A stretch of DNA of 64,000 nt from NCBI RefSeq assembly GCF_988242995.1, contig NZ_OZ547043.1. One strand, written 5' to 3'. The translations under genes were made by a program, and so were the position numbers. A model generated the notes under the pieces. It saw nothing but the letters and a program-made list of their open reading frames with translations. It had not been told where the DNA came from and did no database searches. Below are positions 1 through 60,194 of the stretch, in pieces (the stretch's first letter is position 1; every line of letters starts with the position of its first letter).

Positions 1-3000
1 TTTTGCCTGGGTGCTGGCAATCCTGTTGTGTCTGACAGGGACCCTGGCGATTTTCTCATTGCCCGTTGAACAATACCCCGATCTCGCGCCACCGAATGTG
101 CGAGTGACCGCTAACTATCCCGGCGCATCGGCCCAGACGCTGGAAAACACCGTGACCCAGGTTATCGAGCAAAATATGACCGGCCTCGATAATCTGATGT
201 ATATGTCGTCTCAGAGCAGTGGCACCGGCCAGGCATCTGTCACTTTAAGTTTTAAAGCAGGCACCGATCCGGACGAAGCCGTGCAGCAAGTACAAAACCA
301 GCTGCAATCAGCCATGCGAAAGTTACCGCAGGCGGTGCAAAATCAGGGCGTGACGGTGCGTAAAACCGGCGATACCAACATTCTGACCATTGCCTTCGTC
401 TCTACCGATGGTTCGATGGATAAACAGGATATTGCCGATTACGTTGCCAGTAATATTCAGGATCCGTTAAGCCGCGTGAATGGCGTCGGGGATATCGATG
501 CCTATGGTTCGCAATATTCCATGCGTATCTGGCTGGACCCGGCGAAACTCAACAGTTTCCAGATGACGGCTAAAGATGTCACTGATGCCATTGAGTCACA
601 GAACGCGCAGATTGCGGTTGGGCAACTTGGTGGTACACCTTCCGTCGATAAGCAGGCGCTCAACGCCACCATTAACGCCCAGTCACTGCTGCAAACACCA
701 GAACAGTTCCGCGATATCACCTTGCGGGTGAATCAGGACGGTTCAGAGGTAAGGCTGGGCGATGTCGCCACCGTCGAAATGGGGGCGGAGAAATACGATT
801 ATCTTAGCCGCTTCAATGGTAAGCCAGCCTCCGGGCTGGGGGTAAAACTGGCCTCCGGCGCGAACGAAATGGCGACAGCGGAGCTGGTGCTCAATCGTCT
901 CGACGAGCTGGCGCAGTATTTTCCACACGGACTGGAATACAAGGTGGCGTATGAAACCACCTCGTTTGTTAAAGCCTCCATTGAAGACGTGGTGAAAACG
1001 CTGCTGGAAGCTATCGCTCTGGTTTTCCTCGTTATGTATCTGTTCCTGCAAAACTTCCGCGCCACGCTGATACCCACTATCGCCGTGCCGGTGGTGTTGA
1101 TGGGAACCTTCTCCGTACTTTACGCCTTCGGTTACAGCGTCAACACCTTAACCATGTTCGCGATGGTGCTGGCGATTGGTCTGCTGGTGGATGACGCCAT
1201 CGTGGTGGTGGAAAACGTCGAACGTATTATGAGTGAGGAAGGACTCACTCCTCGCGAAGCCACACGTAAATCGATGGGGCAGATCCAGGGGGCACTGGTC
1301 GGGATTGCGATGGTGCTTTCGGCGGTATTTGTACCAATGGCCTTCTTCGGCGGCACCACCGGTGCCATCTATCGCCAGTTCTCTATTACCATTGTTGCGG
1401 CGATGGTGCTGTCAGTACTGGTAGCGATGATCCTCACTCCGGCTCTGTGTGCCACGCTACTTAAGCCACTGAAAAAGGGTGAGCATCACGGGCAAAAAGG
1501 CTTTTTTGCCTGGTTTAACCAGATGTTTAACCGCAACGCCGAACGCTACGAAAAAGGGGTGGCGAAAATTCTCCACCGTAGCCTGCGCTGGATTGTGATT
1601 TATGTCCTGCTGCTTGGCGGCATGGTGTTCCTGTTCCTGCGTTTGCCGACGTCGTTCTTGCCACTGGAAGACCGGGGCATGTTTACTACCTCGGTACAGT
1701 TGCCCAGCGGTTCAACCCAACAACAGACCCTGAAAGTCGTTGAGCAAATCGAGAAATACTACTTCACCCATGAAAAAGACAACATCATGTCGGTGTTTGC
1801 CACTGTTGGTTCTGGCCCTGGGGGTAACGGGCAAAACGTGGCGAGAATGTTTATCCGCCTGAAAGACTGGAGCGAACGCGACAGTAAGACCGGCACCTCG
1901 TTTGCCATTATCGAGCGTGCAACGAAGGCGTTTAACAAGATTAAAGAAGCTCGTGTTATCGCCAGCAGCCCGCCAGCAATTAGCGGTCTTGGTAGTTCTG
2001 CAGGTTTTGATATGGAGTTGCAGGACCACGCTGGAGCGGGTCACGATGCGCTGATGGCAGCACGTAACCAGTTGCTGGCGCTGGCGGCGGAAAACCCGGA
2101 GCTAACCCGTGTGCGCCATAACGGCCTCGACGACAGTCCGCAGTTGCAGATTGATATCGACCAGCGTAAAGCTCAGGCGCTGGGCGTTGCTATCGACGAT
2201 ATTAACGACACACTGCAAACCGCCTGGGGTTCGAGCTATGTGAATGACTTTATGGATCGCGGTCGCGTGAAGAAAGTCTATGTGCAGGCAGCTGCGCCAT
2301 ATCGCATGCTGCCAGATGACATCAATCTCTGGTATGTCCGAAATAAAGATGGCGGCATGGTGCCCTTCTCTGCTTTCGCGACCTCACGCTGGGAGACAGG
2401 CTCGCCGCGTCTGGAACGCTATAACGGTTATTCTGCGGTTGAGATTGTTGGGGAAGCCGCACCGGGGGTCAGTACCGGTACGGCGATGGATATTATGGAA
2501 TCGTTAGTGAAGCAGTTGCCAAACGGCTTTGGTCTGGAGTGGACGGCGATGTCGTATCAGGAGCGGCTTTCCGGCGCGCAGGCTCCGGCGCTGTACGCTA
2601 TTTCCTTGCTGGTGGTATTCCTGTGTCTGGCGGCGCTGTATGAAAGCTGGTCGGTGCCGTTCTCGGTAATGCTGGTCGTGCCGCTGGGGGTTATCGGCGC
2701 GCTGCTGGCAACCTGGATGCGCGGGCTGGAAAACGACGTTTACTTCCAGGTGGGCCTGTTAACGGTCATTGGTTTATCGGCGAAAAACGCCATCCTGATC
2801 GTCGAGTTTGCTAACGAGATGAACCAAAAAGGCCACGACCTGTTTGAAGCGACGCTCCACGCCTGCCGTCAGCGTTTACGCCCGATTCTGATGACCTCGC
2901 TGGCATTTATCTTCGGCGTATTGCCAATGGCAACCAGCACGGGTGCCGGTTCCGGTGGTCAGCATGCGGTGGGTACTGGCGTAATGGGCGGGATGATTTC

Positions 3001-3085
3001 GGCCACTATTCTGGCTATTTACTTCGTGCCGCTGTTCTTTGTGCTGGTGCGCCGCCGCTTCCCGCTAAAGCCGCGCCCGGAATAA
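1..3085 (+). CDS. acrD: RND-family aminoglycoside/multidrug efflux pump AcrD; 5' end truncated by window edge (~13 codons missing)
   Basis: ORF 11..3085 (1024 aa) with 12-TM RND transporter pattern; reading frame is open back to position 1; recognised as AcrD. Confidence 0.93.
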
Positions 3086-3094
3086 GCAATAAAA

Positions 3095-3125
3095 AAGGCG
3101 ACATGCCAATGTGTCGCCTTTTTCA
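3095..3125 (+). terminator. Rho-independent terminator of acrD
   Basis: GC hairpin aggcgaca-N8-tgtcgcct followed by T-run, 10 nt after acrD stop. Confidence 0.75.
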
Positions 3126-3183
3126 ACTTTCCGATTAAGAACCTGCTCAGCAGGTTCTTGCTGTTTGTACTTTGTCTCAGGAA

Positions 3184-3243
3184 TTACTTACGAAGCATAA
3201 CTTCGATAAAGTCTTTCCAGTTCCCCAGTTCACGTTCAATCAT
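3184..3243 (-). CDS. ypfM: 19-aa small protein YpfM (MIERELGNWKDFIEVMLRK)
   Basis: Hand translation of minus strand gives the exact YpfM peptide; below the 60-aa cutoff of the ORF track. Confidence 0.8.
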   Translation of the reverse strand: MIERELGNWKDFIEVMLRK

Positions 3244-3605
3244 AACAACCTCTCTTATAATTATGGGTATTCTACGGAAACAATATACCGTGGTGAAGCT
3301 AATTTACTCGATTGCTGCGATGACTACCTCCGGGGGACAAACCTTATGTAAATACTATGGTCCTGCGGTGATGATTTGTATGTGATACACAGCAACATTT
3401 CGAGATATTCATACGGCATCTAATACTGATTTAATTCTGGTTAAAATACAGACAGATAACAAGATGAATATTCTTAATGTTTACGTTAAAAATGTTTAAT
3501 ATTATTTAATAGTTGTTAATTTGAATACTTCGATAATGTTATATTTCCTGATAATCATTTGCAGGCAAAATGTTTTCACTCTTAAATGAGTATTTATTCT
3601 CATAA

Positions 3606-3980
<375 letters not shown>

Positions 3981-5344: not shown

Positions 5345-5430
5345 GCGGCCGGATAAGGCGTTAACGCCGCATCCGGCAATGGTGAACGATGCCTGATACG
5401 ACGCATCACGCGTCTTATCAGGCCTACCCG
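5345..5430. repeat. REP/BIME extragenic palindromic repeats
   Basis: gccggataaggcgttaacgccgcatccggc and gcctgatacgacgcatcacgcgtcttatcaggcctac motifs. Confidence 0.8.
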
Positions 5431-41351: not shown

Positions 41352-41702
41352 AGATGCTCAGCAGAATCCCCCACATCCTGAAGGAGGTGTATTCAGACAG
41401 GCATCCCACCTGACTTCGAATGATGATTATTCATCACTATAGAGAGCATTGATTCTAAGTGTCATATGAAAGTTCCAATTGATATATATCAAACAAAATA
41501 ACCCTGATTAATGAATTATTACGTTTATCATGTTAATTCATCATTATTACATCATCATTGTAAATAATTAAATTAACTTCCATAACATTAAAATATGTAT
41601 CCACTGACGCTTTTTTACATAACGAAGAATTGACCATTTTGTCCTGTTGTGCCTTAATGTAAGTACCGTCCACAGCGTGGGACATACTTCAAGGAACCTT
41701 TT

Positions 41703-43325: not shown

Positions 43326-43349
43326 CCTCCGGCATAGCCGGAGGTTTTT
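43326..43349 (+). terminator. Hairpin + T-run; yfgI terminator, or possibly an IS200 right-end structure
   Basis: cctccggc-atag-gccggagg followed by ttttt. Confidence 0.6.
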
Positions 43350-43425
43350 CAAATGCGCCTGTAAGGCTCTGTTACCAGCCGCGCCCTAACAGGCGCATAC
43401 GATCTGACATTTGCATTCAACTTCG

Positions 43426-43884
43426 TTACTTACGGCCCGTAAACGGGCTGCCCGGATATGGAATCGATAACTGCTCCCCCATTTTATCCTCTTCAAGCTG
43501 GTGCTTTATGTAGTCACGTATCTTCGCCGTGTTCTTACCCACCGTATCGACATAGTACCCTCGGCACCAGAACTCCCTGTTTCTGTATTTGAATTTCAAA
43601 TCCCCAAACTGCTCGTAAAGCATCAGACTGCTTTTCCCTTTCAGATATCCCATAAAGCCGGATACGCTCATTTTGGGTGGGATTTCCACAAGCATATGGA
43701 TATGATCTGCGCAGCACTCTGCTTCCAGAATCCGTACGCTTTTCCACTCACACAGCTTTCTCAAAATACTGCCTATCGCCCTACGCTTCTCTCCGTAAAA
43801 CGCCAGTCTTCGGTATTTCGGCGCAAAAACTATGTGATATTTACAGTTCCAGCGGGTGTGCGCTAAGCTCTTTTCGTCCCCCAT
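43426..43884 (-). CDS. tnpA: IS200-type Y1 transposase TnpA
   Basis: ORF 43426..43935; start at MGDEKSLAHTRWNCKYHIVFAPKYRR (152 aa); HIHMLVEIPP HUH motif and catalytic Tyr region RGYYVDTVG. Confidence 0.9.
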   Translation of the reverse strand: MGDEKSLAHTRWNCKYHIVFAPKYRRLAFYGEKRRAIGSILRKLCEWKSVRILEAECCADHIHMLVEIPPKMSVSGFMGYLKGKSSLMLYEQFGDLKFKYRNREFWCRGYYVDTVGKNTAKIRDYIKHQLEEDKMGEQLSIPYPGSPFTGRK

Positions 43885-44023
43885 TGGGACCCCCTTTTGA
43901 TTTCTTGTTTGACACTTGCAGTTGCCAGACCGCAAGGTGTTTTAACAAATCAAAAGGGGTTTTAATAACTGGCTCAAAGCTGAAAGCTTTCCGGAACCCC
44001 CAGCCTAGCTGGGGGTTTTCTGT

Positions 44024-44060
44024 GCACAAAAAACCCTCTGTAGTAACAGAGGGTTTTGTT
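44024..44060 (-). terminator. Rho-independent terminator of guaBA
   Basis: Minus-strand hairpin aaccctctgttactacagagggtt followed by TTTTTT, ~25 nt after guaA stop. Confidence 0.75.
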
Positions 44061-44081
44061 CATTCATAGTGCAGGGTCAAA

Positions 44082-45659
44082 TCATTCCCACTCAATGGTA
44101 GCTGGCGGCTTGCCGCTGATGTCATACACCACGCGGGAAATACCGTTCACTTCATTGATAATGCGGTTGGAAACGCGACCGAGGAAGTCATACGGCAGGT
44201 GCGCCCAGTGTGCGGTCATAAAGTCGATGGTTTCGACAGCACGCAGAGAAACAACCCAGTCATACTTACGACCATCGCCCATTACGCCAACGGAACGTAC
44301 CGGCAGGAAGACGGTGAATGCCTGGCTGACTTTGTCGTACAGGTCCGCTTTACGCAGTTCTTCAATGAAGATGGCGTCAGCACGGCGCAGCAGGTCACAA
44401 TACTCTTTCTTCACTTCACCCAGAACACGAACGCCAAGGCCTGGTCCCGGGAACGGGTGACGGTACAGCATGTCGTACGGCAGGCCCAGCTCCAGACCAA
44501 TCTTACGCACTTCGTCTTTGAACAGCTCTTTCAGCGGTTCAACCAGGCCCATCTTCATCTCTTTCGGCAGGCCGCCCACGTTGTGGTGAGATTTGATGAC
44601 GTGTGCTTTACCGGTTGCAGACGCCGCAGATTCGATAACGTCAGGGTAGATAGTACCCTGCGCCAGCCACTTCACGTCTTCCAGTTTCAGCGCTTCTTCA
44701 TCGAATACTTCAACGAAAACGCGCCCGATGATTTTACGTTTTGCTTCCGGATCGTTTTCGCCAGCCAGCGCTGACAGGAAGCGATCTTCTGCCGGAACGT
44801 GAACAATGTTCAGACCAAAGTGATCGCCAAACATATCCAGAACCTGCTCTGCTTCGTTGAGACGCAGCAGGCCGTTGTCGACGAATACGCAAGTCAGGTT
44901 TTTACCGATAGCGCGGTGCAGCAGCATTGCGGTTACGGAGGAATCCACACCACCAGAGAGGCCGAGGATGACTTTATCGTCGCCTACCTGCTCGCGGATG
45001 CGAGCTACAGCATCGTCGATAATTTTCGCTGGCGTCCACAGGGCTTCACACTGGCAGATATCACGCACAAAACGCTCCAGCATGCGCATACCCTGGCGGG
45101 TGTGAGTCACTTCCGGATGGAACTGTACACCATAGAAGCGTTTTTCTTCGTTAGCCATAATGGCAAACGGGCAGCTTTCGGTGCTGGCTACGGTGACGAA
45201 GTCGGACGGGATAGCGGTAACTTTATCGCCGTGGCTCATCCAGACATCGAGCAGCGGTTTACCGTCTGCGGTCAGAGCATCTTCGATACCGCGAACCAGT
45301 GCGCTGTCGTTTACGACTTCAACCTGCGCGTAGCCAAATTCACGTTCGTTAGAGGCTTCAACGTGACCGCCCAACTGCATCGCCATGGTCTGCATGCCAT
45401 AGCAAACGCCGAATACCGGTACGCCTGCTTCAAAAACATACTGCGGCGCACGCGGGCTGTTTTCTTCAGTGGTACTTTCCGGGCCGCCGGAAAGAATAAT
45501 GCCGCTTGGGTTGAAGTCACGAATTTGTGCTTCTGTCACATCCCACGCCCACAGTTCGCAGTAAACACCCAGCTCACGCACGCGGCGCGCAACCAGTTGA
45601 GTGTACTGAGAACCGAAGTCCAGAATGAGGATGCGATGCTTATGAATGTTTTCCGTCAT
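44082..45659 (-). CDS. guaA: GMP synthase (glutamine-hydrolysing)
   Basis: 525-aa ORF recognised as GuaA. Confidence 0.96.
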
Positions 45660-48791: not shown

Positions 48792-51700
48792 TTACTGGAA
48801 GCAGGTCACCAGACCCGGTTTATTCATTAGCGTGATACTACAATCCTGTGCTCCAGTGCCTTCGTCCATTCCACACTGTTGAGAGGACAAATAAGGAAAA
48901 CTTGGTGAAGACGGCCATCCCAGTGAATTAAAAACAGTGTGCAACAACTCTAATTCATTGTATGTCGGTGCATTTTCTATGCTGCCACACTGCCTTGCAA
49001 TATCCCATTTACTGGCATCAATGATATGTGCAGAAGCCCAGTTTTCGTAGTTAATAATCGGTGAGGATACGGGATTAGCCCCGGACGGCAATTCTGTCGT
49101 TAACAACGGTCGATGTAGCGATTTACCATTCACCACTACAGTGTCTGCCATATGTCCCCAAAAGTGCGCCGAGGAAACATTCGGGCTGGTTGGTACCGTA
49201 AAAATAGCGTCCAGCGTGTCTGTCGCGGAAGCGTAATTAGCCAGAGTAACCGTCAGTGGCGTTTTATAACCAGGGGTATTATCCTGGCGGAGCGTAAAAC
49301 TTGCCGTCCCATCCGCGCCTGTCATGCCACTAATGGTATTACCGCTTTCACTCAGCGTAACAGCCGAACCAGATAACGGCTGAACGATGAGATCGTCCAT
49401 CGCCACCACATCACCATACAACGTCGCCCCAGCGTTACGCGGCGATGCATCGCCACGTTTCAAAGTAAATTCCACATTCGGTACCGTATTCCCGGCGCTG
49501 TCTTTCACCGTCACGGTAACGGGCATGGCTTCGCCTTTTTTCACTTTCGCCGCCTGAATAGCTGCGTCAAACGCTGTTGAGGTCAGTGTGACGCTGGAAA
49601 CCGTTGCGCGCGCAGACACCAGACACGCCTGATAAGCGGCATTACCATTCAATGTCGTTGTGCCATCTTTCATATTGAGCGACTGATTTTTACCATCTGT
49701 AGTCTTATCCTGCGCCCACCAGTAATAATAAACTGACCAGCCAGTTTCCGTCGTAAGGGTGTTATTGGGATAACGTTGATACAGTGACTTCATATCGCTG
49801 AGCAACGGTTGCCGGGCTTCCTCACAAGGGCTGAGGCTGGCATTTGCTTTAGTGGTTGACGAAAAATAGGGCCAGTCCTCATTATTGTTATTGGTTTTAT
49901 TTACCCCGGAGGTCGATGGCAGCTCCTTCCACAATTTCGGTCGTTCAAAGACGGTTCCATTTGCCGCTGTCACCGTTTCTGGCATATGACCCCAGTAGTC
50001 GGCATCCTGGGCGTCAGGGCTGGTGACCACGGTAAATATCAGGTCCAGGTTTGACGTGATCTGCGGATCTTGTGCAAGCGAGACCGTAAACGGCGTTGCC
50101 AGGCCGGTGGTGGCGTTTTGCGTAACATTGAACGTCACTGTGCCATCACTGCCGGTAAAACCAAGCCATTTTGCCGTATCCTGAGCAAAGGAAATACGGG
50201 TTGCTGTCGGTGTGACGACATCTACAATAAGATCATCTGCCGACGATGAGGGCCTAATTCCTGAACGACTTTTCGCCTGCGCCCGCTGAAGCGTCACGCT
50301 CTCGCCACTCAGCAGGTTGCCATTTTGGTCTTTTACTGTCACGACTAACGGGATTGTCTCGCCCTTTTTCGCCGATGCCGAAGGTGTACCGCCGTTACTG
50401 GCGGTTTTCGTCTCATCAAATGCTATTGAAGTCAGGGTAACGCTTGACGGCTTAGAGTGAGGCTGTGCCAGGCAGAGCATTAGAGCAACCGGAGAGAGTG
50501 CGGATGATACTCGTCCCGTACTTAGGTTAAAGACCTGATAATACCAGGAGCTACCATTGGAGTTAAGCAATTCATAAATCCACCAGTTTCCTGACGCTAT
50601 CGGCAACCCCAGATCTTTCGTTAACGCCCCGTTTGGGTGATCGTCATATAACCCCTGCAATTCGCTGAGGCGCGGTTGATATTCCAGCGAACAATCTGCC
50701 GTCGCTTTTTGAGTACTATATATATATGACCATGTCTCATTATTACCGTTTACCGAGCTCCCCGTAGTCGCTTCCGCTGCCAGTAATGGGCGCTTGAAGG
50801 TCACGCCTGCCGAACTGGTAAACGTTTCCGGCATATGGCCCCAGTATTTCGCTTTTGGCGAATCCGGGCTGGTTATCACCGTGAAAATGACATCCAGCGT
50901 GACGCTTTTCGAGGTATCGCGCATGAGTTCTGCGCTGAGCGGCGTTGACAGCCCATAACTGCTATTCTGGCTGACCTCAAACGTAGCTTTACCATCGCTC
51001 CCTGTCTTCAGGAGAGCCTGCGTCCCATCCCCATACAAGATTGACGTTACCCCAGTAGGTTCCACAGGTATGATGGTAAGATCATCTGCAGAAGCATCGT
51101 ACGCAGCTTTAGCGCGGTTCAGCGCAGTCCCTCGTTTAAGGTTAAAGCTGGCACCTGGCAGTGGATTGCCTGCGCTATCTCGCACCGTAACCGTCATCGG
51201 GATAACCTCTCCCTTCTTCGCTGTTGCGCTGGGCCTGCCATCATTGCTGGCCGTTTTCGTTGCATCCTCCGCCGTTGAGGTCATTTCAATAGAAGCCGCC
51301 TCTGGATGAGGGTTTACCAGGCACAGCATTAATGCCGAGGTGCTTGAAGACGCTCTTCCACTTGATCCATTTAACAGATAAATATATTGATCGTACCAGT
51401 TACCCGCATATGCCACCATGTCGTAAGCCCACCAGTAGCTATTTACCGGAATACCCAGATCGGTCTTTATCGCACGACTTGGGTGTTCGTCGTACAATGC
51501 CTGTAGTTCGCTTAACAGTGGTTGATAATGTACATCGCACCCGCTTTTATCGATATCCCCCTTTGTTGCCGATCTCAACACGGCCCACTCTTCATTGTCT
51601 TCTATAAACGACTGGCCCGACGATCTTTCAGCAGAGAGTAAGGGGCGTTTGAAGGCAGTACCAGAACGCGTAGTGAACGTTTCCGCCATATGCCCCCAGT

Positions 51701-54700
51701 AACTTGCCAGGGGGGTATCCGGGCTGGTTATCACGGTAAACATCACGGGTAATTTGTTGGATTCCAGGCTCGACTGATAGGCCTGAGCGTACACATTGGT
51801 TACCAGGCCTATAGAATCATCCTGCTTTACCGTAAACGTGGCTGTCCCGTCTGCACCTGTCACCGCATAAAGGGAGATTGATGGAGTATCCACTCTTGCC
51901 GACGTTCCCGCTGCGTTGATTACAGTGATAGTTCTGTTCGACAACTGTACATTCTGGCGATTTGTCGATCCTTCACGTTTGAGAATAAACGGAACATTTG
52001 GTACGACATTTCCCTGCGCATCTTTTGTCACCACGCGAATCACCGCGTCGTCACCTTTTTTCCGTTTTAGTGCGCTGAGGGTTTCGTCAACTTTGACAAA
52101 TTGTGTCGCATCGTTCGCTTCAACAATAATGTGGCTGGTCACCGCCACTGGGGTAGCCCGACAACTTAGCAGTCCTAGACTGCTTGACATGACCTCCGTT
52201 CCATCACCCGTTTTTAACGAAACCGCTTTAAAATTAAATGTTTGAGTGTAATAGGCAACAACCGTACTGGAGATATAGGCGCGTGATACAGGCCATCCCG
52301 TAACGTCATGTATTGGCACGTAACCTTCATCGGCATACAGTGACTCCAGCTCACTTTCAATCGGGACATATCCTGCACCGCAACCATTTACAGATGTGTT
52401 GTTCGACTGGTCCGGCGAGAACAGTGACCAGCTCTCTCCATCTTCCTGAAAAGAGCTTCGACTGGTTGTAACGGAAAGCTCATCTTGCAATAACGGTCTT
52501 TTATAAATAAGCCCGCCTGCACCGGTCATCGTTTCGGCCATATGCCCCCAGAATTTTGCTTTAGGGGTATCGGGGCTGGTTATCACCGTAAAGACCACCG
52601 GAAGCATTGATTTTACGTTATTATCTGTATCCAGCATGGCGGTCAGTTCGGTTTTTAAACCCGTGGTATTGTCCTGTTTCAGTGCAAGTGTTGTCGTACC
52701 ATCTGCGCCGGTAACGCCATAAATCAGTGCTGTTGTTGAGGAAAAATTACTCTGCGTGTTACCCCAGGCATCCGTCACGATGAGCGCGCCTGCTGTCACC
52801 GTTGTAGACGCATTTGCCCGATTGACGCTAAGGTTACGTTTAAGCGTAAACGCGGTATTTCCCACCGGGTTACCCTGCGAATCTTTAGTGGTCACGCGAA
52901 CCACGACTTCTTCCCCTTTTTTCGCTTTGACAACATTATTCGTACTGTCAAATTTCGCGGGGTCCGCAGCCTCAAGAACGATTTGGCTTGCCTTGACGAT
53001 CGGCGTCGTCTGGCAGGTAAGCAGTTCTTTTGTGGCCGATGGAATTATCGAACTGGTGCCTGAACTGAGATTGACGGCCTTGAAGTCACGCTGTTCCAGA
53101 CTACTGCTGCCTGTCGTGCTGGAAAGGTAACTTGAGGCGACGGGCCAGCCCTGAACCGTTTTCATCGCATTGCCGCGGTTGGCTTCATACAATGACTCCA
53201 GCCCGGCCTGGGAGGGAACATATTCACTACCACAACCATTAGAGGATGTGCTTGTCGCCTGAGTTTGGGTAAATTGCGCCCAGTCCTCATTATCTTCTGC
53301 AATCGCTGTTCGACCCGACGTACTGGATAACTCTTTCAACAATAATGGGCGTTTAAAGACCGTTCCATCCACAGCCGTCACCGTTTCAGGCATATGCCCC
53401 CACATTTTCGCCTTATCGCTGTCCGGGCTGGTGACAACGGTAAAAATGGTATCGAGGGTCGCTTTTTTCGTTGTGTCTGAATAGAGCGCGGCGGTCAGCG
53501 ACGTTTTTGTGCCATGGGTATCCGGGCGGGTAATAGTGAGAATTTTAGTGCCATCGCTGCCGGTCATCGCGCTGTATGCTGCGGCGGTATCATTGAGCGA
53601 AGTTTCATCCGCCAGGCCACTATTGATCACAACCGGCGCAACCAGCGCATCACCGCTACCGGCAATGTGTTTTTCGTTTGATCGGGTATAACCATCGCCA
53701 CGCTTCAGCGTAAAAGGCATATCACCCAATGGATTGCCCTGAGCATCTTTTACCGTCACCTTCACCTGTAGCGTTTCGCCTTTTTTCAGCTTCGCCGCAT
53801 TTGCTGCCGCGTTCCACTGCGCCGGGTCCACCACTTCCAGCGTAATGCTGCTGGCAGGATTGTTAGCCGTCGTCAGGCAACTGACATAAACCGCCGTGCT
53901 ACCGCCAATGGTCCGCGCGCCATCGTTGAGGGCTATGGTGTAGTAATGCGGCACCTGATCCGCGGGCGAACTGCTCCAGTAGGGCTGACGCTGCGTTGGC
54001 CAACCGTGTACCGTTTGAACGGCGTTACCGCTGTTAGCATCATAGAGCGCGTTAAGCTGGGAACGGCGTGGGAGCATATTGGCACCACAGCCACCTTTAC
54101 TGGTGCTGGAAGTGTTGGCCTGGCTAACGCGCGACCACACTTCGTTATTTTCCGTTAATGTGCCGTCCGGGCTGAACACTTCCGCAGCCAGCCGGGGTCG
54201 GGCAAAGGTTAATGCATCGACGGTAATCGTCTCATCCATATGACCCCACATCTGCGCGCCAACCGCATCCGGACTGGTGAGCGTAGTGAAAATCACATTG
54301 TAATTAACAGTATTGGGAATATAGGAGTTTACAGGCGCAATATTCAGCGGCGTCGCTAAGCCCACACCTTGCGGTTGCTTAATTTCCACAGTAGCAAAAC
54401 CCTGCGCATCCGTAGTACCTGCATAGACTAAAGACGGTTGCGATGTTCCGTAGAGCGTGCCATTCATCTCGATTGCGCCGCGGGTTGGATCATCGAAACC
54501 CGTGCTCTGCCCCTGACGATTTTTCCCCATATCTTTAGTGATGGTGAACGCGGTATACGGCACGGGCGCATTACTCAAGGCATTAAAGGTGCGTACCGTC
54601 ATGGTAATCGTTTCACCCACTTTAGCCTGCGCTCTGCTGCTTGTGGAAACATCATGATCGGTGGTCGCAGCAATCTGGGCGACCATCTCATTGCCCGAAC

Positions 54701-56834
54701 AAGAAAGGTAGTTTTGCTTAAAGCCGGAATAGGTGTCGATGTTGCCCGTGGCCAGGTTCACCGACGCGTGCGACGTCTCTTCCACCGCACTAAGATACGC
54801 TTTTTGCAACGTTGGCCAGCCATATTCGGTGCCGATGACATTGGCTGGATGTGCGGCAAACAAACTGTGCAATGAGCTTTGGCTCGGAATATGACCTAAA
54901 CCACACTCAGCCTGCATACTGCTATTCTGATCAAACAGCGCCCAGTCTTCGTTATTTTCCCGCACTGCTCCCAGTTCGTTGTCGGTTTCATCCGCCAGCC
55001 GTGGGCGTTTAAAGATATTATTCGCTTCAATAATGCCTAACATATGTCCCCACATCCGCGCTTTGTCGGAATCAGGGCTGGTGATCACCGTAAAAATAAC
55101 GTCTTTCTCATCCGAGGCGGTAAAATCACTGCGCATTTTCGCGGTGATGTGTGTTTTCACCCCCACGCCGCCTGGCTGGGTCAGCGTCAGAGAGGCCTCT
55201 CCGTTAGCATCAGTGATCCCTTCATAGGTATGGGCGTCAACTTTGCGAACGTTACTGCCACCATCAATTTGTACCGGGTGCGTCTCCCACGCAGCGTCAG
55301 TTTGATTCTTACGGTTAACACCGTCATCCAGATGCAGCGAAAAGTAGTAGTAAGCCAGCGGCTGATCGTTGTTCTTGCTATCGGTAATCGTCAGGCGTAA
55401 AGAAGCCTCTTCCCCCACCTTTACTTTCATCGCTTTTATCGTCGAATCATAACTGCCCGGCGTCAGTACCAGCTTCGGTTCAACATCGGGCGCTTCTTTA
55501 TCGACACAGCTCACAATAAACGTCGTATCGTCCGGTTTTTGCGCTTCGCTGCGGTTCGAAACATCCGCCGCATGGTGCTGGCCGCTCATCCCCGCCAGTG
55601 ATGACCAGTAGAAATTACCCTGCATCGGCCAACCAGCCACATCCTGCACTGACGTTGGCACCACCGTCGCCAGCGCACCGAAATGACGCATTCCGGGCAA
55701 AATGTCGCAATGTTTATCCGCGCCGCTCCAGGTAAAGGTGGACCAGGTTTCATTGTGATCGTTAACCGTACCGTCTTCATTATCGACTTCCGCCGCCAGT
55801 TTTGGTCGACTAAAAGTGTAATCACGGGCCTTCAGCGTATCGGGCATATGACCCCACATTGTAGCCTGCGGGACATCCGGGCTGGTGAGGACGGTAAAGA
55901 TCACTGCCGTTTCACTGGCCTGAGCAATACCCGCGAGGCTCGCGACCAACGGCGTTTTTACACCAGGGCCGTTGGCCTGGGTGACCGTAACCGTGGCAAC
56001 ACCATTCGCATCAGTAGTACCACGATATTCCGTCGCGGTGGTGGTTAATTCGGTCGTGCCCAGTTTTACCGGCGCAGTATTGTTCACCACACCCTGGCGG
56101 TTTTCAGCATCTTTGCGTTTGATAACAAAAGGAATATTCCCCACAACATTACCGACGCAATCTTTGGTGGTGACCGTTAACGTGATACTGCCGCCAACCG
56201 TCGTTTTCGCCGCACCGGAGGATTCGTCATAGCCCGCGGCGCTGACGGAAATAAGGTCACCCTGCGCGGGCGCAATCTTCAGCGTCACTTTCTGATCGGC
56301 GAGGGTCAGAACACTTTCATAGGGATAGCCCGTCGAGGTAAGTAGATATAACAGCGGCATGGTCTGCTGGGGGTCTGGCTGCGCCCAGGCGATCAGCGAA
56401 CGCCCGGCAAGGCCCTGTGCGCAAAATGAGCGATCTGCGACTGGCTGTGGGTCCAGTAAGGTGTCCGGCGTCGCGGCATCCGCCCAAACTAAAGATACTG
56501 TCGGTGGCGTTTGGTTTTCCCAACGTGGTGTGGCAATGATATCGCCTTCTCTGTCTTGCGGGTTGGTGACGAGCAATTTAGAGACGCTAACATCCGCGCT
56601 GAATTCACTCGGTTTAGCGGTAAACGCTACCTCATTCGTCTTTGCAGGATCCAGAAAGACACTGCCCTGGTAGACGGGTATGCTGGCACTGTCGGCGGTG
56701 GGCACGGTACCGTTAAATTCGCCGACCGTATCTGAAGAGTCTTGCCATGCAGATTCTGCCCATGACCACCCAGGCAGCATTGCGCTTATCAGCAATGCGC
56801 ATAACACAAGGATTTTATTCAGGGTCAGGGACAT
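48792..56834 (-). CDS. Giant (2680 aa) secreted Ig-like repeat protein, RatA/RatB-like; signal peptide followed by nine tandem ~280-aa modules
   Basis: Single uninterrupted ORF; N-terminal signal peptide [26 protein letters not shown]; nine copies of the motif FTV(I/V)TSPD...(M/F/Y)WGHM; GGAG RBS 9 nt upstream. Confidence 0.85.
49000..56100. repeat. Nine diverged tandem DNA repeats (period ~800-855 bp) inside the giant gene
   Basis: Plus-strand core catatg(n)cccca (= WGHM codons) recurs at ~49148, 49983, 50832, 51686, 52539, 53391, 54237, 55041, 55846. Confidence 0.8.
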
Positions 56835-56881
56835 GACAGAAACTCCACCGGTTGTTAAACGGACGCTTGTCGCATCAACAT

Positions 56882-56910
56882 ATTTTGCTTAATCCGGGAT
56901 TAAGCAAAAT
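56882..56910. promoter_or_regulatory. 29-bp perfect palindrome between sinI-like gene and giant gene (candidate operator or RNA structure)
   Basis: ATTTTGCTTAATCC-G-GGATTAAGCAAAAT: 14-bp arms with a 1-nt centre. Confidence 0.5.
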
Positions 56911-56919
56911 ATGCGGAAA

Positions 56920-56943
56920 CAGCATTCCCTTGCGGGAATGCTG
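56920..56943 (-). terminator. Stem-loop 12 nt after sinI-like stop (candidate attenuator / partial terminator)
   Basis: 10-bp stem cagcattccc/gggaatgctg, 4-nt loop, followed on the mRNA strand by UUU. Confidence 0.45.
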
Positions 56944-56954
56944 CTGAGTACGCG

Positions 56955-57932
56955 TTATTTGTGTTTGTAAATAATGTGAAGTTTGTAACCCTGTACCCCG
57001 TCGCCGTTTGTCGGAATGGTAAGAGCCTCTTTACCATCGCGCGCAGGACCGTTAAGGTTGGTTCTGGCCTCGTCGTTGGTCGCAGGGATGGCCAGATTGT
57101 TATTATCGAAGCTTGAGTTAACGATACCACCCGAAGTGCCGAGCTGCTGGCTGCTGCCAGAAAGTACCCAACGGAAGTCATAATTGGCGGTAACGTCAGC
57201 ATCGGTACCCGCATCAAACTTGCCGTTTTTGTTCTCATCCGAGTAAAGTTTGGCCACGTAGGTTTTGCCAAGTTCGATTGGCGTGCTGCCGTTGATAAGG
57301 TTGATACTGGTACCATCAACAAAGATGGCGACTTTCAGGTTCTGGTTAACCACCGGCCCTGGCGCAACGTTATCGCTGTCGCTTCCGCCGCCGTCGGCAG
57401 TAGAAACGTCATAAAGATGCAGCGCAGTCCCGACGTTTGGCGTACCGGTCTGCGTGGTTGGCGTAATTTCAATACCGATATAACGACCACGGTCGTCATC
57501 GGTAAGAGTGTAACTGGTCACCTTCGTTGCCAGCTCTTTTGGATCGTTACCCTGAGCGTCCTTGTAGCTCATCCAGCGGATAGTATCGATAGTCTTTGCG
57601 TTATCGCCCAATCCCCCAAGATCCACGTCGCCTTCGGTATCACCAATTTCCCAACTTACGGTTAATTTATCACCCGAGTAAAGACGCTTGTCCGTTTCAC
57701 TACCTGTCGGGCGAGCGCCTTTTAGATCAGAAGTCAACGTTACATGGTCGGCATCTGTCGTAGCGCTTCCCCCTTCCGAATAGAGCCACGGAATGGTTCC
57801 CTGGAAAATATTGGTTTCGCCGCTTTCGACCCAGGCGCTTTCTTCCGCCAGCGCCACAGGTGCCACACAATAACCTGCCAATGCCAGCGCCAATGCGATC
57901 CGGGTCAGACCGCGTCTTTTATCCTGCTTCAT
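56955..57932 (-). CDS. sinI: SinI-like secreted protein (CS54-island sivI homolog)
   Basis: 325-aa ORF with signal peptide MKQDKRRGLTRIALALALAGYCVAPVALA; AGGAGA RBS; C-terminal ~110 aa resemble the C-terminus of the adjacent SinH-like protein. Confidence 0.8.
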   Translation of the reverse strand: MKQDKRRGLTRIALALALAGYCVAPVALAEESAWVESGETNIFQGTIPWLYSEGGSATTDADHVTLTSDLKGARPTGSETDKRLYSGDKLTVSWEIGDTEGDVDLGGLGDNAKTIDTIRWMSYKDAQGNDPKELATKVTSYTLTDDDRGRYIGIEITPTTQTGTPNVGTALHLYDVSTADGGGSDSDNVAPGPVVNQNLKVAIFVDGTSINLINGSTPIELGKTYVAKLYSDENKNGKFDAGTDADVTANYDFRWVLSGSSQQLGTSGGIVNSSFDNNNLAIPATNDEARTNLNGPARDGKEALTIPTNGDGVQGYKLHIIYKHK

Positions 57933-57986
57933 TGATGCTCTCCTTAATGAACCTTCAGCGACTGGCCGACTGGCCTTACGCCAATC

Positions 57987-60164
57987 TTATTTTTTGGTAT
58001 ACAGCACGCGTAAACCGTATCCCTGCAAGCCATCTCCCGCTTGTGCGCCATAGGTTTGCGCTGCTTCGCGGTTAGTGGCCGGAATCACAATGTCCTCATT
58101 GGAAGTGTTCGCCTGTGCACCCACTTCACCATTGATGCTCTTGCCGGTAAATTCCCACTTGTAGTCGTACTGCGCCATCTCTTCGTCAGTCAGTTTTTCG
58201 ACCTGCTGGAAGACACCGTCTTTATTGCTGTCACGCCACAAAACAAATCGATAAGTGTTGTTGAGCGGCAGCGGTTCTTTATCTTTACCTATCAGGTTGC
58301 TGGGTTTAGCTGCCCCCACACGATAGATAAATGCATTTAGCCCACCAATTTCTGCCCCGAGGAAAGTGACATCCACATAGTTACTGTCGTCGTAGGGCGC
58401 AGCTTTTGCTTTCCAGCGATAGGTGCCGGGTAAGGTACTGGAGAGGGTGACAGTGCCCTTTTCTTTATCTTGTTTAGCGATAAAAACGCAGGGGTTGTCG
58501 GTCGAGCAAGGCTTGTTGGTTAACGTCACTCGTTTGTCCTGCGCGTCGTAAAGCTGCGGCGTGAGGTTATCTTCCGGCAGCGCATCGCCATTGCGGTCGG
58601 TGTTATCGCCAAAGCTGTCGGTTACATCGAGATCCATCACCACACCATCAACGCCATCTGCCTGAGCGCTGGCTTCGTGGCTGTGGTTGTTCTCTTCCGG
58701 CACGTTCGCGATGTTATTAACAATCAACTCTATTTTACGGTCCTGCTGAACGGTGATTTCCACCACGCCAGAGTTCTGTCGGTTGCCCTTTTCATCTTCC
58801 AGTGCCAGACGTACTCGCCAGGTATTGAGTTTTTCTTGTTCGGCTTTGTCAGAGCTGTACTGCCAGGCGGGCAGCACCAGGTTCCAGTGGTTATTGTTAC
58901 CCTCTGTCAGGGTATTCTCTTTGATAACCGGCATAACCAACGTGCGGGCAGCATTGTTTTTCGCCTGCCATGACGCAGCGACAATTTTGTAGTGGTGGTT
59001 GATAAGCGCGTTAATGGTCCATTTACATTTTTCCAGCCCGACGGCCGCTTCGGGAGTGTCCTTAATGACGCACTCAGGGTGCTCGTTGGTGGCATCCGCT
59101 TTTAACCACAGGGTGACATCAAGCGGATCTTTTTCTTTGTATTCCAGAACAATAAAGTTATTACGCTCAACAAAATCATGACGACTGCCCATCAACGAGT
59201 GAGCCGCTTTCACTTTATCGCTATCCAATTGATCTTTTAGCGGAACGCCGAACTGATAATTAAGAGTGGCATTAATGCTGACATCGCTGTTATCTCCGGT
59301 CCCCGCTTTATAGTCCGCCCCAACGGTTAGTAATGGCACCGGTTGATAATTCAGTCCAAGTGTTACCGCGTAGGGATCTTTCTCCAAATTATCCGTACCA
59401 AAAAGGGCGACTTCATCGCCGTAATATTGCTCGAAGACAACTTTGCCCCCCAGTTGCGGATAAGAAGGTAACCAGGCTTCGGCACGAATATCCCAGCCGC
59501 GCGCAGGGCGTTCTTCATAAAAGTCGAAATCTTCAGAGTCTTTCCAGTCAGAAAGCGGATGATAATAGTTGCCAGAGAATTTTAAATAATCAGTCCACGC
59601 TTCGCCGCCTAAACCTAAACGGCGATGTCCTCGGGTAAAATCATAATCATAAAATATATTTCCGCCCAATAACCATTCATCAAAATTATGTCTTACCCCA
59701 AGACCAATATTCCCGATTGTACGATCTTCTTTTCGTTGCGCAGAAAATTGACTGAAATAAACAGTGGTTTGATTATCGTACCAGGGAACAAAATAATCGA
59801 TGGAACTACCATCCAGATCGCCGTCCTGGCCAATGGAGAGGTTCGAACGGACCTTACCGTAGGGAGAGAGTGTGTCTTCAATATAAGATTGTGCGGTTGA
59901 GGTGATTTGACTTTGCAGATAGCTTCTGGCCTGAGATTCCAGCGCCTCAGGGGTCAAGTTTTCAAACCCTTGCGTGGCGGAGTTGATGACGTAATCGGCT
60001 CCGCGCTCTTTCAGCGATTTACCCTTGTTGGTTTGTTCATCCTGCTGTGCTGCCTGGCTACCTAAATCAGGTAACGATTCGTTTTGCTTAACATTTATCT
60101 CTGGTGCCGCGAAAGCAGCACCAGAGATAAATGTTAGCATAATACAGCGTTTCCATCGCAGCAT
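57987..60164 (-). CDS. sinH: Intimin/invasin-family inverse autotransporter (type Ve), SinH-like
   Basis: ORF 57987..60194; start chosen at ATG 60164 giving signal peptide MLRWKRCIMLTFISGAAFA; beta-barrel translocator signature (GGNIFYDYDF...LGLGGEAWTDYLKFSGNYYH) followed by passenger domains. Confidence 0.85.
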   Translation of the reverse strand: MLRWKRCIMLTFISGAAFAAPEINVKQNESLPDLGSQAAQQDEQTNKGKSLKERGADYVINSATQGFENLTPEALESQARSYLQSQITSTAQSYIEDTLSPYGKVRSNLSIGQDGDLDGSSIDYFVPWYDNQTTVYFSQFSAQRKEDRTIGNIGLGVRHNFDEWLLGGNIFYDYDFTRGHRRLGLGGEAWTDYLKFSGNYYHPLSDWKDSEDFDFYEERPARGWDIRAEAWLPSYPQLGGKVVFEQYYGDEVALFGTDNLEKDPYAVTLGLNYQPVPLLTVGADYKAGTGDNSDVSINATLNYQFGVPLKDQLDSDKVKAAHSLMGSRHDFVERNNFIVLEYKEKDPLDVTLWLKADATNEHPECVIKDTPEAAVGLEKCKWTINALINHHYKIVAASWQAKNNAARTLVMPVIKENTLTEGNNNHWNLVLPAWQYSSDKAEQEKLNTWRVRLALEDEKGNRQNSGVVEITVQQDRKIELIVNNIANVPEENNHSHEASAQADGVDGVVMDLDVTDSFGDNTDRNGDALPEDNLTPQLYDAQDKRVTLTNKPCSTDNPCVFIAKQDKEKGTVTLSSTLPGTYRWKAKAAPYDDSNYVDVTFLGAEIGGLNAFIYRVGAAKPSNLIGKDKEPLPLNNTYRFVLWRDSNKDGVFQQVEKLTDEEMAQYDYKWEFTGKSINGEVGAQANTSNEDIVIPATNREAAQTYGAQAGDGLQGYGLRVLYTKK
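60089..60136. repeat. Perfect 19-bp inverted repeat (10-nt spacer) inside the sinH signal-peptide coding region
   Basis: taacatttatctctggtgc (60089-60107) ... gcaccagagataaatgtta (60118-60136); also creates a mirror-image ORF on the plus strand. Confidence 0.9.
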
Positions 60165-60194
60165 GCACTTTCCCTGTGACAATGATACAGTCAA

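Follow-up and report, generated by a model that had tools for sequence, protein, structure and literature searches.

The 19-codon reading frame between acrD and yffB is the conserved small-protein gene ypfM and carries synonymous constraint at a predicted ArcZ/SdsR pairing site

Reading frames shorter than the usual length cutoffs of gene calling are abundant in any bacterial genome, and the spacer between acrD and yffB raises the question of whether one of them is a gene and, if so, what its sequence is selected for. In the window, that is, the whole 64,000-nt stretch of DNA analysed here, acrD (11..3085, plus strand) and yffB (3624..3980, plus strand) are separated by 538 nt with 34% GC. An earlier note had translated by hand a frame lying within this spacer on the minus strand, opposite to both neighbours, and had named it ypfM. 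The reverse complement of positions 3184-3243 reads ATG ATT GAA CGT GAA CTG GGG AAC TGG AAA GAC TTT ATC GAA GTT ATG CTT CGT AAG TAA, and its computed translation, MIERELGNWKDFIEVMLRK followed by a stop, agrees exactly with the one made by hand. With 19 codons, the frame falls below both the 60-aa cutoff of the supplied ORF track and the 20-aa floor of the ORF listing used in this study. Its length does not exceed what chance provides, since the six frames of the window contain 972 ORFs of at least 19 codons, 60 of them with a Shine-Dalgarno-like tetramer upstream; thus, the case for a gene must rest on other evidence.

Regarding identity, the frame is the already catalogued E. coli gene ypfM (3184..3243, minus strand; 19 codons plus TAA), and the gene is not new. 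An E. coli record in RefSeq that matches the 701-nt query at 100% identity carries "ypfM: protein YpfM" (WP_001386977.1) at equal coordinates, and ypfM of K-12 MG1655 (b4606, "uncharacterized protein YpfM") occupies the corresponding position, with acrD, ypfM and yffB on the same strands as here. The 19-aa peptide, submitted with one appended X, matched the NCBIfam equivalog model NF033843 (small_YpfM) over its entire length: residues 1-19 aligned with all 19 profile positions, at 59.2 bits (E=2.4e-16) where the cutoff is 33. No Pfam family matched the peptide, and a profile search of the PDB with 22 peptide variants returned no match at E<=10. The name given in the earlier note was therefore right: amino acids, position and strand are identical to those of the K-12 gene, which is found here in another E. 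coli strain. Indeed, a megablast search with the spacer (window 3000-3700) retrieved 5,425 of 5,426 complete E. coli genomes, 5,407 of them with at least 80% coverage; in a spread sample, 11 of 12 rows were full-length matches, all with the annotation "ypfM: protein YpfM" under the match. The window itself is approximately 99.7% identical to its best-matching isolate, from which it differs in insertions, and corresponds neither to K-12 nor to that isolate.

Loss of the reading frame in related genomes, the observation that had been named as evidence against the gene, was looked for in 80 loci anchored on yffB, one per species, ranging from Escherichia to Yersinia, Erwinia, Lonsdalea and Dickeya. 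Ungapped six-frame scanning with BLOSUM scores detected a YpfM-like 19-codon ORF in 74 of these loci, with scores of 66-100 compared with 30 or less for the second-best frame, in every case on the strand opposite to yffB and with an ATG start. Among 57 distinct ORF sequences, the ATG was kept in all and the stop remained at codon position 20 in 55, encoded by TAA (36), TGA (16) or TAG (3). Entropy by codon position was 0.205/0.200/0.679, and dN/dS was around 0.10 (Nei-Gojobori). Such codon-position entropy and dN/dS, together with a fixed stop position occupied by varying stop codons, are the signature of a translated frame; as judged from the aligned orthologues, ypfM is under purifying selection across Enterobacterales.

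The proposal that the 19-codon ORF is due to chance, the conserved element being instead an antisense 75-aa ORF (3158..3385, plus strand) or a purely non-coding RNA, has a negligible likelihood: although short ORFs are as plentiful in the window as stated above, and the third codon positions of the 75-aa ORF are in register with those of ypfM so that codon periodicity alone cannot separate the two, the antisense ORF was rejected since in 63 of 73 loci stops interrupt it outside the overlap and it has no conserved start, whereas ypfM retains its start and stop positions while using three stop codons, is represented by a curated NCBIfam model and yields a peptide seen intact by mass spectrometry (PMC12529367). 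We consider that a genuine free-standing small-protein gene, with the transcript, peptide and RNA layers proposed below, is the best explanation of the whole, with a probability of roughly 85%.

At the protein level, YpfM was reportedly detected with an SPA tag by Hemm in 2008. More recently, the intact peptide was identified by top-down mass spectrometry with 100% sequence coverage and a formylated initiator Met, as well as by DIA and by PRM against synthetic peptides, being present in all replicates only of the samples from low-Mn2+ minimal medium (PMC12529367). Down-regulation of ypfM in aerosolised cells has also been published. Our literature search found no functional study of YpfM and no reported partner of the peptide.

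The earlier note had also taken ypfM as a sign that the 60-aa cutoff of the ORF track hides real genes, and had suggested that several AT-rich spacers might conceal others. The first point holds, ypfM being the only curated K-12 gene below 60 aa in the window; the suggestion about the spacers did not find support. Upstream of ypfM, where positions 3400–3620 had been singled out, a screen of 3244-3623 for ORFs of at least 10 codons with normalised conservation scores revealed 13 other ORFs, none of them conserved beyond E. albertii: their scores dropped to 0.02-0.5 or their best matches contained stops, compared with 0.88-1.00 for ypfM. In the pdeF-yfgG spacer (41400–41700), only a 50-aa ORF was found (41533..41685, minus strand), which is restricted to Escherichia/Shigella, is missing from the curated K-12 annotation, belongs to no NCBIfam or Pfam family and is called "hypothetical protein" by PGAP in some strains. 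Identity to its homologues is 74-100% (82% for that of E. albertii), their called lengths run from 27 to 88 aa, and nearly all those that carry a name are "hypothetical protein", with one "Transposase". This ORF sits upstream of the pdeF promoter, in a spacer described as a divergent promoter region (yfgF(pdeF)-yfgG) and marked HNS (Shimada 2014; PMC3946193), and on all these grounds it is probably not a real gene. For the yfgG-yfgH spacer, the K-12 annotation shows no gene.

The transcription unit of ypfM can be read in some detail. A consensus scan of the region returned a single promoter on the minus strand, of the sigma-70 type (3269..3297), with a -35 hexamer TTCACC (3297-3292), a 17-nt spacer and a -10 hexamer TAGAAT (3274-3269). 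Both hexamers are conserved across genera, and the same TTCACC-17-TAGAAT combination is given as the ypfM promoter by Shimada (2014; PMC3946193). Transcription would start near 3262. The Shine-Dalgarno sequence AAGAGAGG (3249..3256, minus strand) lies 5 nt before the ATG; in an alignment of 68 sequences its G14 never varies, and conservation at A15, G16 and G17 is 90% or higher. Downstream, a terminator scan located a bidirectional intrinsic terminator (3090..3125; AAAAAGGCGACA...UGUCGCCUUUUUU, 14 pairs) common to ypfM on the minus strand and acrD on the plus strand, which forms within the MFE fold and whose stems are conserved across genera. In the alignment of 73 distinct orthologous regions, conservation falls into four blocks, namely the promoter hexamers, the 5'UTR with the Shine-Dalgarno sequence, the ORF and the stems of the terminator; elsewhere, the 3'UTR is poorly conserved. 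Promoter, Shine-Dalgarno sequence, 19 codons, a 3'UTR of about 95 nt and terminator thus make up a monocistronic mRNA with a predicted size of about 180 nt. The predicted mRNA of approximately 178 nt has an MFE of -52.7 kcal/mol (z = -4.4), to which two 3' hairpins contribute most. One hairpin of the 3'UTR, detected by folding and scanning, is a perfect 10-bp stem (3136..3160, minus strand; AAGAACCUGC-UGA-GCAGGUUCUU) with conservation digits of 0-6; it is confined to close relatives and corresponds in the Rfam alignment to an insertion of 37 nt versus 13 nt.

The same region matches the Rfam family RF01409, STnc250 ("Hfq binding RNA"), over its full model (1-94) at 3085..3204 on the minus strand, which covers the last six ypfM codons and the 3'UTR. 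The match scored 37.4 bits (E=1.6e-5), under the gathering score of 42, owing to the lineage-specific 3'UTR insertion, a further hairpin (3136-3160) of about 24 nt. Despite this sub-threshold score, the locus is the orthologue of the Salmonella STnc250 locus, which occupies the same acrD/yffB spacer and whose model spans the last six ypfM codons, the 3'UTR and the terminator. The name of the family implies a non-coding sRNA; what it describes is actually the 3' part of the ypfM mRNA. Indeed, Sittka (2008; PMC2515195) reinterpreted STnc250 as the small ypfM mRNA of Salmonella, which appears at around 220 nt on Northern blots, depends on growth phase and is 4-fold enriched in Hfq co-immunoprecipitates. 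The predicted length of approximately 178 nt in E. coli (around 155 nt would be expected in Salmonella) is shorter than the Northern signal, making an upstream start possible. On the other side of the gene, the AT-rich spacer up to yffB (3244..3623; 31% GC) is a divergent promoter region in which the screen described above revealed no further conserved small ORF; promoters for both ypfM and yffB have been assigned there, with the spacer marked HNS (Shimada 2014; PMC3946193), and a MarA ChIP site has been reported in the ypfM<>yffB spacer of Salmonella.

A very short ORF followed by hairpins and a terminator, on an RNA associated with Hfq, also calls to mind a cis-acting leader peptide or attenuator, or a type I toxin. 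Both readings have a very remote chance of being correct. A leader or attenuator would need a regulated gene downstream on the same strand, but beyond the ypfM terminator only acrD is found, in antisense orientation, and selection acts on the amino acid sequence of YpfM and not on its translation alone. Toxins of the Ibs/Ldr/Hok kind are hydrophobic membrane peptides countered by an antisense RNA, whereas YpfM is charged and amphipathic, and no overlapping antisense RNA gene is annotated in the RefSeq record or in K-12.

The position of ypfM beside the gene of an RND pump suggests a further alternative, namely that YpfM is an accessory peptide of AcrD, as AcrZ is for AcrB. In 71 of 74 ypfM loci, the gene lies 74-457 nt past the acrD stop codon, the two genes being convergent and served by one terminator; two further ypfM loci, in which ypfM lies at the locus edge, fell outside this assessment. 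Adjacency to acrD persists where yffB has moved away: in two loci (L066 and L072) the distance between ypfM and yffB grows to 1,044 and 1,543 nt, acrD is detected, and ypfM stays next to it. Besides, all six loci that lack ypfM are also devoid of acrD at that position, and in E. coli strain 81 an IS1 takes the place of the acrD-ypfM segment, both genes being deleted. Nevertheless, single deletions are expected to remove adjacent genes jointly, and Dickeya retains ypfM, 235 nt from yffB, without acrD beside it, a cold-shock gene and crcB lying downstream instead. These two points weaken the link to an improbable one. AcrZ, the partner of the RND pump AcrB, resembles YpfM in being a small protein, and ypfM adjoins the RND pump gene acrD in nearly all loci. 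However, AcrZ is a 49-aa transmembrane helix, and YpfM, a charged 19-aa peptide, contains no transmembrane helix.

The codons of ypfM also display reduced synonymous variation. Using dapE in the same 69 genomes as a control for synonymous variation, the mean minor-codon fraction was 0.156 in ypfM vs 0.345 in dapE. The reduction concentrates in a block spanning codons 4-10 (3214..3234, minus strand; core GGGAACUGGAAAGA), where hardly any synonymous variation is observed: minor-codon fractions were 0.07 or lower at codons 4, 5, 7, 8 and 10, whereas only 7.5% of dapE sites are as low, and none of 367 dapE windows contained five such sites in seven codons. At Gly7, 51 of 55 sequences use GGG and none uses GGC or GGU. 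Structure within the mRNA fails to explain this constraint: RNAalifold predicted no pairs on the alignment of the ypfM 5'UTR and ORF, and two candidate helices were rejected as its cause, the hairpin of codons 13-18 that forms the first stem of the Rfam model and the longer ORF-3'UTR helix of the E. coli MFE fold, since neither displayed covariation higher than that of shuffled controls.

Published interactomes point to pairing with other RNAs. Hfq-CLASH recovered 13 ArcZ-ypfM hybrids, the ypfM part of the ArcZ chimera being UAUGAUUGAACGUGAACUGGGGAACUGG; this interaction was seen in the exponential and transition phases, carries a flag for its presence in RIL-seq data as well, and is accompanied by an SdsR-ypfM hybrid (supplements of PMC7213987). 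In a RIL-seq-derived table (Bar 2021), 2,829 exponential-phase chimeric fragments are assigned to the ypfM CDS, all with one partner, whose statistics equal those of the arcZ row (96 interactions, SIC 0.921422, 28,271 fragments); ypfM hence accounts for about 10% of ArcZ chimeras. The supplements of an EPEC RIL-seq study do not mention ypfM. The ArcZ-ypfM pairing appears in published supplementary tables, and our literature search did not find it discussed in a main text.

ArcZ and SdsR share the motif UUUCCCUGG, which lies in single-stranded regions of both sRNAs. With their seeds, duplexfold predicts a 9-bp core between ACUGGGGAA of ypfM (3221..3229, minus strand; nt +15 to +23, codons 5-8) and UUCCCUGGU of the sRNAs, with energies for single-stranded seeds of -12.7 kcal/mol for ArcZ and -15.4 kcal/mol for SdsR. 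Whole-RNA duplex folding of ypfM with the sRNAs gave long helices without meaning and was set aside. The predicted core falls inside the CLASH fragment quoted above and spans the third positions of codons 5 and 7, both of them frozen, while the alternation between G and A at the third position of Leu6 retains pairing with U. The same site was the best one for the ArcZ seed in 60 of 68 orthologues; in Yersinia and Dickeya the peptide is retained, the GGGG site is lost and Gly7 is replaced. When 5,000 synonymous recodings of ypfM were considered, 5.9-9.6% paired as well with the single-stranded ArcZ seed and 8.5-13.4% with that of SdsR, which is suggestive only; with 24-nt seeds the proportion was 16-31%, which is not significant. 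A need for pairing would explain the frozen synonymous sites, including the otherwise disfavoured GGG codon for Gly; selection for sRNA pairing at codons 5-8 is no more than plausible, the natural codons not being significantly better at pairing than their synonymous alternatives.

In the mechanism that we propose from these published data, the ypfM mRNA pairs on Hfq, via codons 5-8, with the common UUUCCCUGG seed of ArcZ (and SdsR). This pairing probably represents physiological regulation. As to its outcome, a site 15-23 nt past the start codon makes an effect on translation initiation, which would decrease, and/or on mRNA stability the likeliest, with translational repression as the likeliest result. 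YpfM synthesis would in this way be tied to the oxygen and stationary-phase signals that control ArcZ and SdsR.

A related alternative reverses the roles, the ypfM transcript (STnc250) acting as a regulator in its own right: present in abundance and bound to Hfq, it would titrate ArcZ/SdsR or be titrated by them, beside or above its function as a template for the peptide. Several features agree with it: the mRNA entered the catalogues as a candidate sRNA that binds Hfq, possesses a 6-U tract, takes the share of exponential-phase ArcZ RIL-seq chimeras given above, and is the second RNA in about 31% of its chimeras, a value between those of a typical target and an sRNA; the suppressed synonymous variation at the pairing site would also fit. 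Nevertheless, a large chimera count may just mean an abundant target, and a RIL-seq-based classifier gives ypfM an sRNA score of 0.009. In addition, the 3'UTR other than the terminator is poorly conserved and has no conserved seed, neither the RNAalifold prediction nor the two helices examined revealed a conserved structure, and the peptide is clearly selected and made. The data on base pairing by ypfM RNA are of association (Hfq co-immunoprecipitation, CLASH, and RIL-seq chimeras with ArcZ/SdsR), and we regard a regulatory transcript of this kind as unlikely. A broader proposal is put forward only tentatively: across Enterobacteriaceae, ArcZ (and SdsR) would have in the ypfM mRNA a conserved partner of high occupancy, selected both for its peptide and for its RNA pairing, which maybe acts as an ArcZ sponge or as a dual-function RNA such as SgrS or AzuCR and so connects YpfM synthesis with oxygen and stationary-phase signalling.

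Returning to the peptide that the small-protein gene encodes, YpfM contains four acidic and four basic residues (8 of 19), has a mean hydrophobicity of -0.12 and lacks any hydrophobic stretch; with this composition, it is not membrane-spanning. Its helical hydrophobic moment at 100 degrees is 0.546, a value that 2.7% of shuffled sequences reach. Among 22 distinct variants, from which a frameshift-like Lelliottia sequence (K19 replaced by Asn) was left out, M1, E5, W9, K10, F12, I13, M16, L17, R18 and K19 are invariant, whereas positions 4 (R/H/T/V/L), 8 (N/H/Q/T) and 15 (nine different residues) are hypervariable. On a helical wheel, these three variable positions gather at 300-340 degrees, and the hydrophobic residues together with E5 fill 0-160 degrees. 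The periodicity of conservation at 100 degrees was equalled in strength by 7% of shuffles and is not significant. YpfM might form a single amphipathic alpha-helix with a hydrophobic face made up of I2, L6, W9, F12, I13, M16 and L17, in which E5 is embedded, a possibility to which we give somewhat less than even odds. The case for the helix is weak: the periodicity is not significant, and the G7-N8 pair in the middle could act as a helix breaker or as a cap.

If the helix forms, its constant hydrophobic face and freely varying polar face (positions 4, 8 and 15) would make docking on a larger partner the most likely mode of action, by analogy with other bacterial small proteins. The hydrophobic face would dock onto a larger partner protein (or a membrane surface) and modulate that partner, and the invariant E5 inside the face favours a specific protein contact over generic membrane binding.

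As a discovery, the frame matters little, for ypfM has long been in the K-12 annotation, is covered by a dedicated NCBIfam model and turns up routinely in proteomics; its value here is as a reminder that length cutoffs conceal real genes. The comparative data add the strong purifying selection acting on it from Escherichia to Yersinia, Erwinia and Dickeya, and a conservation pattern from which a one-faced amphipathic helix can be proposed and tested. The one non-trivial addition is the coincidence of the frozen synonymous codons 4-10 with the ArcZ/SdsR site derived from published interactome supplements, which offers a concrete experimental handle on YpfM.

Among other known systems, a likeness exists with AzuC, a 28-aa amphipathic small protein of E. 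coli encoded on an Hfq-binding RNA that was first listed as an sRNA candidate. For AzuC, both a protein partner and the base-pairing activity of the AzuCR RNA have been demonstrated. The two proteins also coincide in being found in all replicates only of low-Mn2+ minimal-medium samples (PMC12529367). AzuC and YpfM share no sequence similarity, but each is a very small amphipathic peptide that does not span the membrane, and each is encoded on a short transcript associated with Hfq that came out of sRNA screens. MgtS (YneM), a transmembrane protein of 31 aa, has a known partner, whereas YpfM would be soluble or amphipathic. The MgtS gene nonetheless resembles ypfM in having been discovered as a conserved short ORF inside an sRNA candidate, STnc570 in Rfam (Wassarman 2001, as quoted by Sittka 2008; PMC2515195), and MgtS/YneM was seen as a stable short Hfq-associated mRNA in Salmonella.

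The codons 4-10 of ypfM (window 3214-3234, minus strand) formed a block with almost no synonymous variation, minor codons being found in only 5 of 248 cases, compared with 127 of 551 at the remaining codons of the gene. Even the non-preferred codon GGG was kept at Gly7. No equivalent of this pattern was found in 7-codon windows of the control gene dapE from the same genomes. The low-variation block overlaps the site of pairing with the Hfq-dependent regulatory RNAs ArcZ and SdsR (predicted at codons 5-8) from published CLASH and RIL-seq data.

Downstream of the coding sequence, the ypfM 3'UTR contains a hairpin with a perfect 10-bp stem and a 3-nt loop (window 3136-3160), located after the stop codon and ahead of the terminator and showing no conservation beyond close relatives. 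When the sequence is aligned to the Rfam family STnc250, which matches the last ypfM codons and the 3'UTR, this hairpin appears as an insertion (37 nt versus 13 nt) that lowers the score to under the gathering threshold.

With regard to the 5' end, a single hybrid detected by Hfq-CLASH links ChiX to a fragment, labelled "ypfM 5UTR", lying 155-184 nt 5' of the ypfM ATG, i.e., at approximately 3398-3427 of the window on the minus strand, upstream of the ypfM promoter. In the RIL-seq data, 140 "ypfM.5UTR" chimeras were recorded, and the statistics of the partner RNA equal those of the uhpT 3'UTR RNA. Together with the difference between the transcript size estimated by Northern in Salmonella (~220 nt) and that predicted here (~178 nt), these upstream fragments hint at a second, more upstream transcription start for ypfM.

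The C-terminus of YpfM differed in two variants, all others ending at codon 19. In Lelliottia nimipressuralis (2552-2611 of its locus), the loss of one base from AAA-TGA replaces K19 by N and lengthens the reading frame, and in Yersinia nurmii (1398-1457) a 20th codon (Ala) precedes the stop. The gene neighbourhood also varied. In Dickeya undicola (1908-2765), ypfM adjoins yffB, and the place of acrD after it is taken by a gene for a CspE-like cold-shock protein and by crcB; in Lonsdalea, which lacks ypfM, the crcB and nitrilase-family neighbours are the same. In E. coli strain 81 (NZ_CP088131.1, 3249-3946 of the extracted locus), IS1A replaces the expected narQ-acrD-ypfM segment between aegA and yffB. 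At least one human isolate can thus do without ypfM and acrD, as this natural deletion shows.

The spacer between pdeF and yfgG contains a 50-aa ORF (41533-41685, minus strand), upstream of the pdeF promoter, which is annotated by PGAP as "hypothetical protein" in some E. coli genomes and is missing from the K-12 annotation. Its homologues were restricted to Escherichia/Shigella, with called lengths from 27 to 88 aa, and no family match was obtained; the ORF is unlikely to be a genuine gene.

Elsewhere in the window, an insertion of ~760 nt between yfgI and guaA (43329-44086), missing from K-12 and isolate AF39, carries on the minus strand an IS200-type transposase ORF (43426..43935, beginning MGDEKSLAHTRWNCKYHIVFAPKYRR) and a strong match to Rfam STnc490 (43894..44017, 146 bits). 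Between xseA and yfgJ, an island on the minus strand (48792-60194), is also missing from K-12; as annotated in AF39, whose record is collinear here, it encodes the inverse autotransporter SinH, a SinI-family protein and a protein of 2,680 aa with adhesion domains. Finally, the ypfN-ypfH spacer matches Rfam naRNA4 (nucleoid-associated ncRNA 4, CssrE) with 85.7 bits (5347-5424, plus strand).
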